From a virus, in IMG/VR virus record IMGVR_UViG_3300001846_000219: DNA of 64,000 nucleotides; one strand, written 5' to 3'. Every line of letters begins with the position of its first letter. Position 1 is the stretch's first letter. Shown here piece after piece: positions 13,499 to 53,500 of this stretch. The notes beneath the pieces were generated by a model. That model saw only the letters and a list, made by a program, of their open reading frames with translations. It made no database searches and had not been told where the DNA came from. The translations under genes were made by a program, and so were the position numbers.

Positions 13499-13511
13499 AT
13501 TGTCCAAACCA

Positions 13512-14144
13512 ATGAACTTATCTGATAATTTTGAGAACATTGCACAGTCAAATGTCTACGGATTGTTTATGATGCCCGTGGGAGTTTTCCACAATCCAGA
13601 TCATACTGAGCACAAGCAACTTATTCTGGATTATATACAAACTCTCGATTCTGAAACTGTCACCTCAGCACGACAATCTATCTCCCACGGTATTCTCCAA
13701 CTTGGTCCTTCTAATATACTTGACCAACCCGAACTATCTCCAATAAGAGAAACGATCTCACAGGCGATTCTAGACATCAATGCCAACGCTTTTGCATACG
13801 ATCTACAATCCCCAACCATTACAGATTCCGTTTTAGAAGTACATCAAGAAGGATCATTTCTCGCTCCACACGAGTATGCAAACTGTCTCTATTCTGGCAT
13901 CTATTTCATTAACTACGATCGCGAAGAACACTCCCAATTAAAGTTCAAACGCACAATCGCCTCTCCATTCTATTCAATCATTCAAGCACCTCAAACTACA
14001 CAGACTGCCTTTAATCTACTCGATACAAGTGTACCTTACTCAGAAGGAGATATTGTCATTTTCCCGTCTAATCTCTCACACGGGTATGAATCAAACTCTC
14101 ACGCTAATCGTATCACTCTCTCCTTCAACATTCCCCCATTTTAA
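13512..14144 (+). CDS. 2OG-Fe(II) oxygenase-like protein (TIGR02466-like), altered metal motif
   Basis: LAPHEYANCLYSGIYFI, EGDIVIFPSNLSHG, RITLSFN. Confidence 0.75.
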   Translation: MNLSDNFENIAQSNVYGLFMMPVGVFHNPDHTEHKQLILDYIQTLDSETVTSARQSISHGILQLGPSNILDQPELSPIRETISQAILDINANAFAYDLQSPTITDSVLEVHQEGSFLAPHEYANCLYSGIYFINYDREEHSQLKFKRTIASPFYSIIQAPQTTQTAFNLLDTSVPYSEGDIVIFPSNLSHGYESNSHANRITLSFNIPPF

Positions 14145-14146
14145 TA

Positions 14147-14485
14147 ATGAACCCATTCACCAAGATTAACGACAATACGTTCAAAGATAGTGAAGGAACG
14201 TTATACAAACCTATTCCTAATTACGAGGATTATTATGTCTCTAATACAGGAAACATTTACTCCACAAAGTATGGTAAATGGAAACGCCTTAAGACTCATC
14301 TAAATGAGAATGGATACAGGAGAGTTACTCTAAGACAGAATGGGCGGACAGTTGTAAGAAGATGCGCCAGATTAACCGCATTGGCGTTTATACCTACGGA
14401 ACTCAATGATTGCAACGTTTTTCACATCGACGGGAACAAAGTTAACGATCATTCTACTAATCTAAGGTGGGTGAGTTCTGTATAG
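14147..14485 (+). CDS. NUMOD4-HNH homing endonuclease-like protein, C-terminally short
   Basis: YKPIPNYEDYYVSNTGNI (NUMOD4); ALAFIP...FHIDGNKVNDHSTNLRWV. Confidence 0.8.
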   Translation: MNPFTKINDNTFKDSEGTLYKPIPNYEDYYVSNTGNIYSTKYGKWKRLKTHLNENGYRRVTLRQNGRTVVRRCARLTALAFIPTELNDCNVFHIDGNKVNDHSTNLRWVSSV

Positions 14486-14681
14486 TTTTCCACAGGTTTT
14501 TCCACAAAGGGGATTATTTTCTGTGGAATAAAAATGGTCTAATAAATATACCTTACTGTTTTGTTAATCGTGTTAGAATCCCTCTGAGAAGTGCAACCTT
14601 AGACTCTACTCTATCGACAGCGAGTTGTCAACACTCAGAGGACACACGAAAAACTGACACAATGGGTTGACTTTTTCCACA
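14486..14681. repeat. Cluster of TTTTCCACA (DnaA-box-like) motifs
   Basis: Exact copies at 14486, 14498 and 14673; inverted one-mismatch copy TGTGGAATA at 14522. Confidence 0.7.
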
Positions 14682-14695
14682 GTCTCCCTTATACT
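14667..14695 (+). promoter_or_regulatory. Sigma70-type promoter
   Basis: TTGACT (14667)-17 bp-TATACT (14690). Confidence 0.8.
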
Positions 14696-14736
14696 TTCAA
14701 AGTCCCTCAAAGTTAACCAAATTCACCTCTAATCTA

Positions 14737-14931
14737 ATGGGTCGCACATACAAACGGAACGACACTTATAGAAGTAATCGTCCGAAAAGTCTGCGTGAAA
14801 AACGTAATAATCGTCCACGTGGTAAGTATGAACAATTGGACAATTATGAGTCCAGTTCATATAGCAAACAGAACAAGACTAATCGACAACAATCGGAGTA
14901 TGATTTGAATGGAGATGACATCTATGGTTGA
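14737..14931 (+). CDS. Protein with a basic N-terminal half
   Basis: MGRTYKRNDTYRSNRPKSLREKRNNRPRGK. Confidence 0.7.
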   Translation: MGRTYKRNDTYRSNRPKSLREKRNNRPRGKYEQLDNYESSSYSKQNKTNRQQSEYDLNGDDIYG

Positions 14932-15252: not shown

Positions 15253-15491
15253 ATACACTTGGCGTATATTAAAAGGGGACCCTATGTGTAACCTACAAAA
15301 GTATAGGGTCGAGCATATTATCGAAACCTCTTTGAGGGTCCCCCCATATACAAAAAATTTTTCCCAGGTAAAAATCCCCCAGGAGGTCGTTTAGAATTTC
15401 CCAGTTCCTCTGAGATGAGTCACCTGCAGATAACCTCGGATAATAAAAAAAACTTCCTATATACTGCAAGAATGTAACGGACGGTATCAGA

Positions 15492-15653
15492 ATGTCTCGT
15501 AGGTTTATACTAAGTGTTGAGGAGGACGAACACGGGGATTGTTTCATTACATTACCCGATGAGTTACTTGATGAACTCGGATGGCAAATTGACGATGTTC
15601 TAGAGTATACTGTTGAAGGAGAAAACGTTTATCTCAGTAAAGTTGATGAGTGA
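15492..15653 (+). CDS. AbrB/MazE/SpoVT-like swapped-hairpin DNA-binding protein (53 aa, not in the track)
   Basis: FILSVEEDEHGDCFITLPDELLDELGWQIDDVLEYTVEGENVYLSK; LP.E+...LGW..GD.L pattern. Confidence 0.75.
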   Translation: MSRRFILSVEEDEHGDCFITLPDELLDELGWQIDDVLEYTVEGENVYLSKVDE

Positions 15654-16444: not shown

Positions 16445-17263
16445 ATGAAAACACTGCAACAGCAACTCAATATCGACAACAAAATCGATGCCTATGATTT
16501 TTGGCATCTGTATGAACCCAATTTCAATCAACCACGTAGAAGTAGTGCAAACATTGAGGTTCGTAAATCGATTGGTTTAGACACTGCTCGTCCTGGTGAT
16601 TTAATTACCTCTCTAGAGGGAGAGATGTGGCGTATTGCTATTCACGTTGAGAATGGTCAGGAAGTGACTCTTCCCTGGATGCACGTTTCCAACTTTGGGC
16701 GTGTGATTAGTCACGTGTACCCTAGTGCCACTCAGAAGCGTCTTGGCAAGAGATGGGATCCAACATACCATCGTCTGTGTGACGGCAAGTTGAAGCGTTA
16801 TAGCGGCACCGATGAGAAGACTTCTGGATGGAAGTTACTTATCAAAATGCCTCATATGGGGAAGTTGGAACCAGTGTGGTTGGATGACGAATGTACTGTT
16901 CAAAGTGCAGCATCCAAACGACAGGAGCGTGATATTGCCATTCACACTTTGGTTGCAAATACCTGGTACCCTATCTACGAAAATATACCTGATGTGGATC
17001 CTCGAATGCTGAAAGCATTGAGATGGGATACTGCATCTAAGGAAGATAAATTGTGGATGCAAGAGTTGTTTGAGGTTGATCATAAGGATCAGAACCCATT
17101 AAATAACTATGCCACCAACTTCCGTCGAACTACAGGTAAGGAGAACAATCGTGCAGCACTACGTGCACGTGGAGGCAACCACGCTAATCATCGTGGTACT
17201 ACTATCAATGTTGATGTTGAACCATCCAATAATCTTATGGAGTTGTTTAATGGAAATTCCTGA
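16445..17263 (+). CDS. NUMOD4-HNH homing endonuclease
   Basis: EMWR...VSNFGRV (NUMOD4); IHTLVANTW; EVDHKDQNPLNNYATNFRRTTGKENN. Confidence 0.8.
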   Translation: MKTLQQQLNIDNKIDAYDFWHLYEPNFNQPRRSSANIEVRKSIGLDTARPGDLITSLEGEMWRIAIHVENGQEVTLPWMHVSNFGRVISHVYPSATQKRLGKRWDPTYHRLCDGKLKRYSGTDEKTSGWKLLIKMPHMGKLEPVWLDDECTVQSAASKRQERDIAIHTLVANTWYPIYENIPDVDPRMLKALRWDTASKEDKLWMQELFEVDHKDQNPLNNYATNFRRTTGKENNRAALRARGGNHANHRGTTINVDVEPSNNLMELFNGNS

Positions 17264-17489: not shown

Positions 17490-20400
17490 TGCCAGCCTAT
17501 ATCATTGAAACTGGTCGTAGTTATGAAAACCCCGTAGATTCGGATGATTACTATAGGACGTGGAACTCGTCTGATCATCCGTCTCTCGGCGGTGGTTATC
17601 AAATTACATTCCAAGATGCTGGTCCTGGTTCCTACAATTTTGGTAGGGACGAAGTATTTTATATTGGTGCGCCTACAGAAACTTGTGTAGCAAACTGCAA
17701 TTCTACACGTAGGGGTGTTTGGAGATACTACTCTGGATCAAATGAAGATCATTTGTATTGGGTTGATGAGAGTATCCCAAAGAACGATACCTTTGATAGA
17801 AGATCATATAATCACGAACCACGCAATAAGAGAAGATATTTTCAACTCCTAAAAGAGTCTGTTGGTAGTGCAGTTGGGGTATATCTGCATTTTAGTAATG
17901 GAAATAAGAATTCGTATCTGTCTTCCAGTAGTAGTGGAGCAGTTCGTTTCTTAGGATATGCATATTCTTCCCAATCTGCTGCCAATTCTGCTGGAGTAAC
18001 CAATCCTGGTGAATCTGCAATACCTTTGTATCACTATCGGAAGAATAATTCCAATGGATACGATGATTTTTACACAATCAACCCTGCAACAGAGGTAAAC
18101 TTACAAATTGGTGTCCCTGGAGTGCCCGATCCAGCGGAAGCACTGAATCAAGAGTACCAATATATTGGAATTTACGCTTGGGTGTTTGATGGATCTGCAC
18201 CTCAAGCAAAAAAACGCTTTGAATCGACAGGAAAAGCATTCAATACAGGTGAAGTTGACCGTTCTGGATGGTACAACTACAATACAACGTGGTCTAGAAG
18301 ACGATATGAGGATGAACCCACCGATACACCTGCTGAGCAGGGGTGGGGTGAAGCAACTAGCGTTGCTCTAGCATCTACTGATGCCAATTTTGAGTGGTTC
18401 TATGGTAAAAATGGTGCTGTTAAAGCGTGTATGCCAAGATTCCTTGGTTTTCACGATGCATTTGAAGGACAATTCTTATATTATCTCTACGATACATCAT
18501 TTCCGTTTAATGGTCCCATCTATGGTATCAATTTTACCACTACAGATGCTCCCTGCTGTCCTGCACGGAGTGAAACACCGTGTGTACCCAACGTAGAATA
18601 CCACTCATACTACTATGAGATGCGTGAGGATGCCTGGGTAACCCAGAAAACACGTATTACTGTGGATGTGCCTGGAAAGGGCGCTGCAGAGTCATTCTGG
18701 GCGGTAGGAACGGATGATCCAATGATCTTTTTCCGCTACACCTCGTCCAGTGGTGCATTTAGACTTGGCGAAACCCTGAATGGGTGGGAAATACAAAGAG
18801 TTCGTTACTTTGGGGATGAATTGAAGTGTGGTTATATGACACTCAAGGGCATTTCATCACAGTTTGGTAATGCATTTACATATAACCAGTCTATTACGTC
18901 AAATGACGGTGCTACAGGGGTTGTTTTAGCGGGTTATGGCATCAAAGATAAGGCAGCATTCTTTGGAATTTACGAATTTCCAAAACAACTGTCATATTAT
19001 AAGGTTGAACTCGACAATAAAGCACTGATTCCGAACAGAACTTTGGATGAGGCGGTATTAGAGGCAATCGTAAACAATAAAGGCGAAATTGATCACGTAA
19101 ACATTGTTAATTCTGGTAGAGATTACAGAAATCCAACCCTTTCATTCTCACTTCCTGACGTTATTCGTGAAGAAGGATTCTCTGATGCCGCAGAAAATAT
19201 CCCAGAAGCGTTTGAAGATGATGTTTCTGGTGAAATTGCAATCTCACTTGAGTCCAGTGATGAATTTGAAAGTGGTGATTACTCAACCAGAAAGATTGGT
19301 AGAAACGTTTCTAAGCAAAGATACGTCACACAGGACGATTTTACGGGAACTCTGAGGCAGGCTAAGGGTTATGCAGTCTTAAATGAGATCGGATGTATCA
19401 AACAGGTCGTCATTACAGACAAAGGAGCAGGGTATCAACCTGGGGAAAAGGTAGAAATCTACGTTGTAGATCGTTTAACCGAGACTCGGGAAGACACTTT
19501 TGTTGGTCCTGGCGCTGCTGACATCAAAACAAAGGTCGATTCTTCGGTGGGAAGTGGTGAAATTGGTGATTCTAGGGTGAGATCTGCATTTTCTGAGATG
19601 CAAGAGATCGCTGGAACTGCTCTAGATGTCCTAAAAGAACCAGTTTTATCAAATTATACCGTTGGATACATTAGAAATACGGATGTAAACAACTATGAGA
19701 AGACAAAATTCTGCGATGATGTGATTCCATCGATATGTTTAGACCTAGATATGGGATCTCAGTGGGCAGATGTGAACACTTATACAGATGTGAGTTCACT
19801 TTGGGGCGAAGTTAAGAATGCAAATCCAAATTGGAACCAAAATAATGAGTTTTTTGCGGATATTCAAACAAATTCATCTAAGAATCAGCAGATAATCAAC
19901 ACTAAAATGAACAGTGGACTGCCTGGAATCTTTGGTGGACCGTGTATTGAGACAAATCAAGCAAATTTGTATACGGTAAAACGCTTTGTTGACCTTCCTT
20001 GCCCGTATGTTGCATACGATCCCAATGGGGTTGAGAAGGTTTTTGGATACTTACCCTTCAAATATTGCGGTAATGATCAAGAATTTGCAACTGTTAGAGT
20101 CACATTGTCAGTAGAAGGTGATGTTTCTGGCGTTAGTTCGGCAGTTAATGAGCGTTTTATGGACTGGTTGAGTTGGTTACCCAAACCAACATTAACTCCT
20201 GCACGTCAAGTTGGGGGTGGTGTGAAGTGTCACCCGTGTGTTAGAGGTGCATATAAAGGTAAATGTTATGAAACTGCCAACGGTGAGTACACATTTGTAC
20301 CTCGTTCTGGGGATGAAAATACATTTGATTACAATGGACCTGGCGCAACACTGTCAACTTCAAATGAAGAGTTGGGTCAATTGAGCACTTGGATCGGTGA

Positions 20401-50597: not shown

Positions 50598-53500
50598 ATG
50601 CCTCAGAATACCAATCTGAATATCTCCCCTTACTTCGACGATTTCGATAAGGCGGACAATTTCTACCGAGTGCTTTTCCGTCCTGGGTATCCCATTCAGG
50701 CACGAGAACTCACAACGATGCAATCTCTGTTGCAAAACCAGATTGAATCGTTTGGTACCCATATGTTCAAGGATGGCTCGATGGTCATCCCTGGTCAGGT
50801 TGGTTACGATCTTGATGCAAAAGCCATTCTACTTCAAGAGTCATTTCTTGGTGCCGACATTGAGCAATACAGAGCACAACTTGACGGTAAGATCATTGAA
50901 GGTCTGACGACAGGTGTTAAAGCAAAAGTTCTGTTCTCTATCCCAGCATCAGAATCTGACAGAGGATACATTACAGTATATCTAAAATATTTGACATCTG
51001 GTGGTGATGATAATGATGTCGCCACATTCGTGAATAATGAACAACTCATTTGTGAATCGGAAATTACTTATGGTAATTCTCTAATCGAGATTGGCACACC
51101 ATTTGCACAGATGCTCCCAACCAGTGCTACAGCAATTGGTTCTACAGCATCCGTTGCTGCTGGTGTCTACTTCATCCGTGGTTACTTTGTGGATGTTGCG
51201 GCTCAAACAATTGTTCTTGATCAGTACGGAAACAACCCCTCATATCGTATCGGTCTGGAAATCTTTGAGTCTATTGTTACTCCAGAAGACGATCCAGAAC
51301 TCAACGATAACGCAACTGGCACTTCTAACTACTCTGCTCCTGGTGCTCACCGCTTCAGAATCAGAACTTCCTTGGTTAAGAAGGTTATCGATGATGATAC
51401 CGATAAGAACTTCCTCGAACTTCTGAGAATCAACAAATCTCAGATCGAATCTTTTGTTGAAAGAAGCGCATATAATGAAATGGCAAGAGAACTTGCCAGA
51501 AGAACATATGATGAGTCTGGTGACTATACCGTCCGAGATTTTGATGTTCGTATTAGAGAACACCAGAATGATGGTATCAATAATGGCGTATATCTCCCTG
51601 GCGAGGTTTCCCCTGGTGGAATCTCATCTTCGGAATCTTATTATTCTATTGAGGTTGGTCCTGGTAAAGCATATGTTCGTGGATATGAGTCAGAAACTCT
51701 GACTCCGACCTTTGTTGACCTGATCAAACCCAGAACTACTGTCGGTCTGCAGAACTCGATCATTCCGTTTGAACTCGGCAACTATATGCTGATGAATAAC
51801 GTGAAGGGTTCTCCGATTGTAAACGGTAATAACATCACTGCAAACTATCAAGTTGTTGAACTTCGTGACGTTGCACCTAATAATGCTCTGACTGCATCTG
51901 GACGTATTATTGGTTATGCACGTGTGGCAGCATATGAGTATCATAGTGGAACAAATGTCAACTCAACTTCGACTGTTTTCAAAGCATACCTGTTTGACAT
52001 TCAACCGCTCACACTATTTAAGATGAGCAATAATGTGACTCTTTCGCAGGGTCACGTTATTCGTGGTCGTACTTCCAGAGCAAAAGCATTTGTCGAAGGT
52101 GATGTTGCTGGTGGTAGCCTGTTTAGTGTTTATCAGGTTTATGGTTCTTTCCGTGCTGGTGAAGTTATCGAACGTGATGGCGTTGAAATTGGTACCTTGG
52201 ATGACCTCTTCCAATATGAGGTTACTGATGCAAAAGGTATTACTGGTAGAGATCCCGACACTAATGCAATTGTCTTTGCAGGTGATTTTGTTCTCGATCA
52301 AGAAACAGTTATCCTCGGAACAAACTTCAGTGTCCCCAACACTGGCAGTGGCACTTTGACTGGTACACAATCCAATTTCACGTTGGATCTGCGTCCTGGT
52401 GATGTTCTCACTGCAAATGGCAGTACCACACTACAGGTCAATCTCATCGATACTTCTGGTAGCAGTATTGCGAACAAAGTTACCAGTGCAACCACGGTGA
52501 CTTATTCCAGTGGAAGTGTTGTAGCAGACGATTATGCATTCTTAGTTCGTCGTCGTGTACAAGTCTATGATCGTGAGACTGCAGATCTCCTGATCGAAAT
52601 GCCCAAGGATTCGATCAACAACATTTCTGATGAATCTGCAATCGTTGCACGTTCTTTTGATGACATCACGGTTACTGGTGCAAACGACTTTACGATCTCT
52701 CTGCCTGCTGACGAACAGTTCCTGGCATATGATAAGGATCATTATCAATTGGTTTCTCTTGCACCTACTGCAGGTACATTAATTGATATTGAAAATAATA
52801 TTACATTCAACACAACTGGTACACCCAGAACATCTCTGACTGTTTCTGGTCTTGCTGGTATCACTTCTTGCCGTCTCATTGCTTCTGTGTCTAAAAACCA
52901 GGCAGAGAAGAAACTGAAGAATGCTACTGAAATGGAAGTGATGAAGGTTGAGCGTACTGCCAACTCTTCAGATAACGTTAAGTATGGTCTGACCTACGGA
53001 TCTTTGTATGGTACCCGTATTGAAGACGAAGAAATTTCGCTGGGTTGTACTGACGTTTATAGAATTCACGCAGTTTATGAATCCGCAGATGATAATGCTG
53101 CTGTGATTCCTAACCTGACAATGCAAGATGCTACCATCTTCCAAAAGGGTACTATCATTGAAGGTCAAACATCTAAGGCAAAAGCAAGAGTTGTAAACTT
53201 CAATCCAGTGTCTTATGTTTGCCACTTTGTGTATGAGAACGATTCGTTCTTTATCCTCGGTGAGACAATCCGTGGTTTCGATGCAAACAATAATGTCATT
53301 ACTGGTTTGGTGAATGATGCTGAAGGATCCGTCAACAATGGTTCTCGTAACATTACCGATTCTTTCTTCCTCGATGTTAACCAGCAAGGACATTACTATG
53401 ACATTTCTAAACTGATTCGATATGCTGGATCGACATCACCGTTGCGTAAGTTGATGGTTGTCTTCAACAGATTCACTCACGAAGCAACTGGCGACTACTT

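Follow-up and report, generated by a model that had tools for sequence, protein, structure and literature searches.

A conserved module of DnaA-type boxes, an AT motif and back-to-back promoters in T4-like cyanophages: a candidate replication origin or control region

Layout of the module

The module is a short gene-free stretch in the genome of a T4-like marine cyanophage, of which we analysed 64 kb (the whole stretch, hereafter the window). It has a 2OG-Fe(II) oxygenase gene and an HNH gene on one side and a 64-aa ORF on the other (Table 1), and forms the border between a cluster of small early-type genes and structural genes. The gene to its right has 297 matches, all in Synechococcus or Prochlorococcus phages. 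Among annotated phages, S-WAM1 gives the only DNA-level match, which covers the interval itself (14486-14736). No Rfam or tRNA match was obtained at the module. Reading rightward, two forward boxes and an inverted one precede the 24-nt AT motif. After some 45 variable bases come the CTAAG motif and the leftward sigma-70-type promoter, followed by a degenerate dyad of the early-promoter type and by the rightward promoter, whose spacer holds a further box.

Table 1. Coordinates of the module and of neighbouring features in the window
Feature	Position	Strand	Remarks
2OG-Fe(II) oxygenase gene	13500-14144		contains the 9-mer copy at 13585
Exact 9-mer	13585-13593	+	within oxygenase gene, in frame; no conservation
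NUMOD4/HNH endonuclease gene	14147-14485	+	left flank, context
DnaA-type box 1, exact	14486-14494	+	right after HNH stop; 43 nt left of AT motif
DnaA-type box 2, exact	14498-14506	+	12 nt after box 1; 31 nt left of AT motif
DnaA-type box 3, inverted, one mismatch	14522-14530	-	abuts AT motif; exact in close relative L005
AT-rich tract, candidate unwinding element	14529-14570		14529-14552 is the conserved 24-nt motif, core AAATGGTTAAATAAAYATA
Conserved CTAAG-type motif	14597-14602	-	just past leftward -10, at predicted transcription start
Leftward sigma-70-type promoter, predicted	14603-14631	-	TTGACA, 17 nt, TAGAGT; aimed into AT tract and boxes
Degenerate early-promoter upstream dyad	14638-14661	+	52 nt before rightward -10
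Rightward sigma-70-type promoter, predicted	14667-14695	+	TTGACT, 17 nt, TATACT; serves small ORF
DnaA-type box 4, exact	14673-14681	+	in rightward promoter spacer; in 3/29 lineages
Basic 64-aa ORF, no known family	14737-14931	+	linked to module
Second conserved non-coding element	15289-15302	+	TAACCTACAAAAGT, then A-tracts to about 15375

The first-pass annotation had reported exact copies of TTTTCCACA at 13585, 14486, 14498 and 14673, and an inverted near-match at 14522. All four exact copies are present, all on the plus strand, and so is the near-match (TATTCCACA, 14522-14530, minus strand, one mismatch). The copy at 14673 was also correctly placed within a promoter spacer: it directly follows the -35 hexamer (14667-14672) and lies in the 17-nt spacer that leads to the -10 (14690-14695). 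The 9-mer matches the cyanobacterial DnaA consensus (PMC4009838, PMC4674748), in agreement with its original description as a cyanobacterial-type DnaA box, and the box variants TTTTCCACA, TTATCCACA and TATTCCACA all conform to this consensus. The accompanying statement that fewer than one copy would be expected by chance in the window did not hold up, the chance mean being 1.28 copies and four copies being reached in 4 of 100 shuffles. A total of four in 64 kb is only slightly out of the ordinary; it is the clustering and the conservation that carry the signal. Simple Poisson arithmetic on the 1.28 rate gives about 1e-5 for three exact copies packed in 196 nt. The copy at 13585 was considered as a further part of the module and set aside as probably incidental, being coding and not conserved; distal single copies in relatives fall within codons such as F-P-Q or F-S-T, at positions that differ. 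The tandem pair formed by boxes 1 and 2, with 3 nt between the boxes, fits DnaA binding, since domain IV of a cyanobacterial DnaA binds two perfect boxes 2 nt apart and does not clearly bind a lone box (PMC4674748).

The interval had also been described as AT-rich. As a whole it is only slightly so (62% AT vs. 57% for the window), but the stretch from 14529 to 14570 reaches 76%. By nearest-neighbour energy, only one other 50-bp segment of the 64 kb is less stable than that beginning at 14513. In Syn9, S-SM1 and Syn1, the corresponding tract is far from being the least stable DNA of the genome. A model of the AT motif gives a best score in the window of 25.5, with the next at 4.4, and finds the motif as its top match in five of six genomes. 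We did not adopt a T4 late promoter as an explanation for this motif: the TAAATA core is present in the window but broken in many relatives.

The leftward promoter reads antisense to the genes on its flanks. A search for an intrinsic terminator of its RNA found none, and the predicted folding of this RNA is no better than that of shuffled sequences (z -0.22). On the rightward side, the 52-nt spacing from dyad to -10 is the same as in seven early cassettes of the window. The small ORF has no Pfam or PHROG family, matching only unnamed viral clusters in the atlas; its N-terminal 23 residues are highly conserved and its tail is variable. The HNH stop codon immediately precedes box 1 in the window (related loci: L043, L046 and L054). 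In one box-less lineage the HNH gene apparently extends to the AT motif across the would-be box site, which suggests that insertion or extension of this gene displaced the boxes there. A second, diverged HNH-type gene lies at 16445-17263, 1.7 kb to the right of the module.

Conservation, helical phasing and box-less relatives

Conservation in relatives had been put forward as a check on the boxes, and it was borne out, with one cluster per genome. Using the small ORF as bait, independently of the boxes, we gathered 80 viral loci, of which 29 are non-redundant. In these 29 relatives the density of the 9-mer is 86-fold higher in the box zone than outside it (9.3 vs. 0.108 per kb), and 24 of them have at least one exact box; four control 9-mers gave 0-1 matches. 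The positional enrichment and the control 9-mers together rule out a chance origin of the boxes. As the zone and the motif model were defined on the same 29 loci, a second set was picked by the promoter-side pattern, and boxes were found at the same offsets in 14 of 15, some lineages overlapping the first set.

Whole-genome searches revealed a tight cluster at the locus in Syn9 (module at 52565/52589), S-SM1, Syn1, S-WAM1, S-SZBM1, S-PM2 (19231-19264), S-SM2, S-ShM2, Syn33, P-SSM7 and S-SKS1, and several of these phages have a second box pair some hundreds of bases further right. In the parts of their genomes scanned for the motif, P-HM1, S-SSM7, S-CRM01, S-CAM9 and HTVC008M showed no module. 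S-SKS1 (L443), classed outside the Kyanoviridae, has a module in which three boxes follow one another at a spacing of exactly 21 bp (record positions 151414-151464) and a tandem repeat of about 21 nt that fills the spacer up to the promoter. Low-GC relatives (L161, L175, L189 and L150) have four to seven exact boxes on both sides of the promoter region, a density nearer to that of a bacterial oriC; those of L161 lie at roughly -700 to -520 relative to the second element.

The most constant parts of the module are the leftward promoter and the AT motif, both of which were absent from the first-pass annotation. The promoter is found in 28 of 28 alignable lineages, with TTGACA in 25, a 17-nt spacer in 26 and TAnnnT in all 28. 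In Syn9, S-SM1 and Syn1 the leftward -35 is kept and a strict -10 was not found. Further boxes occur inside the small ORF, at +99 to +125 in the codons of its variable tail, in 13 of the 29 relatives, the window genome not being among them. These boxes are in both orientations, which argues that it is the DNA motif that is kept rather than the peptide.

The boxes have a regular relationship to the AT motif, likewise absent from the first-pass annotation. Forward boxes occur at -77, -55/-54, -44/-43, -34 to -31, -22 and -13 from it, and inverted boxes at -20/-19 and -10 to -7. On distinct positions, the forward boxes are best described by a period of 10.8 bp (R 0.85, p 0.0005), and the distance from motif to promoter varies in steps of about 11 bp (R 0.75, p 0.0025), these p values being generous in that kinship inflates the counts of identical positions and adjacent offsets are partly redundant. 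The boxes lie whole turns of the helix away from the conserved motif, a pattern that indicates, as far as spacing can, proteins arrayed along one helical face. Among relatives, the box adjoining the AT motif can be in either orientation and on either side.

Some relatives lack boxes altogether. P-TIM40, P-SSM2, P-SSM4, P-RSM4, S-RSM4 and several contigs have the AT motif and the leftward -35 and no boxes, and one 94%-complete genome contains none at all. On a gp23 capsid tree, box presence changes six times, four of these changes being forced by well-supported branches. Thus, with the promoter and AT motif persisting without boxes and the box state switching repeatedly on the tree, DnaA, if it acts here, must be accessory. 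The isolation host was Prochlorococcus for four of the five box-less named phages and Synechococcus for 10 of 11 box-bearing ones (one-sided Fisher p about 0.013, hand-computed on a small sample with kinship ignored). Loss of boxes through growth in hosts that lack dnaA was not supported as an explanation, since DnaA is present in 5/5 host-family genomes tested, including those of 1.6-1.8 Mb.

A candidate origin and its alternatives

A GC-skew inflection had been suggested as a check for an origin, and none was seen genome-wide in six complete relatives. There is a local step, C-rich on the left and G-rich on the right of the same coding strand, and its polarity is that expected at an origin. 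Ranked within the window, the step at the boxes is at the 99.5th percentile; at the second conserved element it reaches the 99.1-99.9th percentile in six genomes. The largest step in the window maps at or near this second element, which lies about 550 nt past the ORF start. The centre of the step is nearer to the TAACCTACAA element than to the boxes. In Syn1, 3.4 kb separates the element from the boxes, and there the step goes with the element. The second element could be the true origin, or a packaging site. It should also be noted that gene orientation does not switch at the module; gene class does change at the locus, and codon differences between early and structural genes could produce the step. 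The element region (15255-15385) is single-copy and is made up of an AT run, the element and A-tracts; the element was found in more than 100 viral contigs and in many named T4-like cyanophages. Just to its right is a conserved 53-aa protein (phrog_661, 15492-15653); it has a weak AbrB/MazE-type match and is a candidate for binding DNA in this region.

We favour a transcription-primed origin like T4 oriF and oriG, which host DnaA would assist without being essential, and give this reading a probability of roughly 0.45. Early in infection, host RNA polymerase would transcribe from the leftward promoter, and the resulting RNA would enter the AT tract and form an R-loop. Host DnaA, bound to the boxes on one face beside the AT motif, may help to open the tract or may stall the transcript so that its 3′ end remains as a primer. 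By analogy with T4, the phage replisome (gp59/gp41 helicase and gp43) would then load, and recombination-dependent replication would take over later. This reading is favoured by the anatomy of the module, the leftward promoter in 28/28 lineages, the enrichment and phasing of the boxes, the published binding of similarly paired boxes by a cyanobacterial DnaA domain IV, the local skew step and the inclusion of gp59 in the annotations of relatives. It is weakened by the lack of a genome-wide inflection, by a step that is nearer to the second element and by the box-less relatives; also by the -10 and the tract stability of Syn9, S-SM1 and Syn1, by the variable orientation and side of the boxes and by the conservation of the AT motif in sequence. 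A host-DnaA-assisted origin, one of three possibilities raised initially, is thus still the best reading, while DnaA as a required initiator is not compatible with box-less relatives that keep the promoter and AT motif.

A rather unlikely alternative is that the back-to-back promoters form a DnaA-sensitive transcription switch, producing an antisense RNA over the early region in one direction and the small ORF in the other. DnaA bound downstream or in a spacer would block, end or stimulate transcripts according to the level of DnaA in the host, with no initiation of replication. Consistent with this, each promoter has boxes downstream of it (the left array for one, the array within the ORF for the other), the leftward RNA has no terminator that we could find, and DnaA-stimulated transcription has a precedent in lambda (PMC3985674). 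A roadblock, however, needs no fixed helical phase relative to the conserved motif, and it would leave the local skew step unexplained. The spacer box is found only in the window genome and two other lineages, so that the DnaA-repressed promoter originally proposed would fit a minority.

A genome-end signal, in which the module and the TAACCTACAA element mark a packaging start or terminal repeat, appears improbable. The boxes would then tether or pause entering DNA via host DnaA, as proposed for the injection-stop of T5. This explanation takes its support from a complete relative, G005 (L050/L051), whose 629-nt terminal repeat starts within the CTAAG motif and stops precisely where the second element ends. 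Contigs of three lineages (G005, L053 and L075) likewise start within this motif, 25-27 nt to the left of the leftward -35, and the S-SZBM1 record was opened about 56 nt to the left of the second element. The A-tracts after the element and the resemblance to the T5-like box pairs 3 bp apart (bioRxiv 10.1101/866236) point in the same direction. Assembly breaks explain the coincident ends equally well, however: with short reads from mixed populations, assemblies break where conserved sequence meets variable sequence, as it does at these points, and other contig ends are scattered over 4.6 kb. Moreover, G005 is box-less, the T5 model is itself a proposal, and T4-type packaging gives circularly permuted genomes (PMC3016281).

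It is more improbable still that the boxes are a sink, by which multiplying phage DNA draws DnaA off the host origin and stops host replication. Numerically a sink, which the first-pass annotation had also proposed, is possible: two host-family chromosomes have only 15 and 17 exact copies, fewer than a few tens of phage genomes would bring at 3-4 boxes apiece. Exact tandem pairs 11-12 bp apart are also rare in hosts, occurring once across five genomes, and host oriC boxes are mostly imperfect. But a sink needs no fixed locus, adjacent promoters or phasing to the AT motif, the last of which it leaves unexplained, and most relatives have only 2-4 boxes per cluster. T4-like cyanophages also degrade the host chromosome, making titration less useful. 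One perfect tandem pair was seen away from dnaN, upstream of a gene in a Vulcanococcus genome (L270, 5172-5191), and is possibly a DnaA-regulated host promoter.

Least probable of all is that the 9-mers merely look like DnaA boxes and are sites for a phage protein such as the adjacent small basic ORF. In one large group this ORF shows tight linkage to the module, and the case would parallel RepE and the evenly spaced iterons of T4 oriE. Against it, the variants follow the DnaA consensus, box-less phages retain the ORF, and no such ORF was seen beside the module in the box-bearing Syn9, S-SM1 and S-PM2. A phage-encoded DnaA DNA-binding domain (domain IV) was not found in the three complete relatives tested.

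Returning to the transcription-primed origin, one may tentatively extend it to a single conserved origin at which the primer RNA and a phased array of host DnaA cooperate, the DnaA input being repeatedly gained or lost by host lineage. As a part of this extension, and equally tentatively, the input would be mostly kept in Synechococcus phages and mostly absent in Prochlorococcus phages. If so, a lytic T4-type replisome would be responsive to the host initiator, and phage DNA copying or early transcription would be tied to the host cell cycle, in viruses that are abundant in oceans and lakes. In the literature searched, we found no paper on DnaA boxes or mapped origins in T4-like cyanophages. 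The module is real, conserved and apparently an undescribed variant of an origin or control region. The origin question is directly testable, since the module is present in Syn9, S-PM2, S-SM1, Syn33 and S-WAM1, and P-SSM2, P-SSM4, P-TIM40 and S-RSM4 are box-less.

Comparison with known systems

The cyanobacterial oriC upstream of dnaN (PMC4009838, PMC4674748) shares with the module the 9-mer, tandem pairs 11-12 bp apart and an AT-rich neighbour. The module thus has a cluster of host-consensus boxes and an adjacent AT-rich tract of low stability, but only 2-4 boxes, no dnaA or dnaN nearby, no replicon-wide skew inflection, and boxes that relatives can dispense with. In host-family origins a box is followed by a run of CTA trios at 27 of 30 dnaN loci. 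Such a DnaA-trio run is absent beside the boxes of the phage modules, where only scattered 6-mers occur (6/29 modules); those of the window are inside a promoter, about 75 nt from the nearest box. A copy of a chromosome-type oriC was rejected as the trios are missing.

The T5 injection-stop resembles the module in that a lytic phage has conserved boxes, in pairs 3 bp apart, at the non-coding edge of its early region. It differs in having eight boxes in long inverted repeats within a long terminal repeat, with no such repeats at the module. T4-like phages are not known to inject their DNA in two steps.

Lambda offers a likeness of another kind: close to its origin, promoters are followed by sites for host DnaA, which is a helper rather than the initiator. 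Its DnaA sites downstream of pO have been footprinted and DnaA stimulates transcription there (PMC3985674). In contrast to the module, the lambda sites only resemble the consensus, and initiation is by O protein, bound to its iterons, with host DnaB. Neither an O-like gene nor an iteron array was seen at the module locus.

T4 initiates replication without host DnaA. Its origins share no motif with one another and have no DnaA boxes, whereas the module has a sequence-conserved AT motif to which the boxes are phased; T4 unwinding elements need no specific sequence. The oriF and oriG promoters are, unlike those of the module, MotA-dependent middle promoters, while oriE has an early promoter that is read by unmodified host polymerase (PMC3016281). 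At oriF and oriG, a promoter and a downstream AT-rich element occupy about 100 bp, and the R-loop primes synthesis (Kreuzer and Brister 2010, PMC3016281). The module has the same arrangement, with an AT-rich element just downstream of its leftward promoter, the -10 of which is weaker in the Syn9, S-SM1 and Syn1 group. The module also matches T4 origins in its size of about 100 bp, and its local skew step may be a counterpart of the shifts in strand composition near which they lie (PMC3016281).
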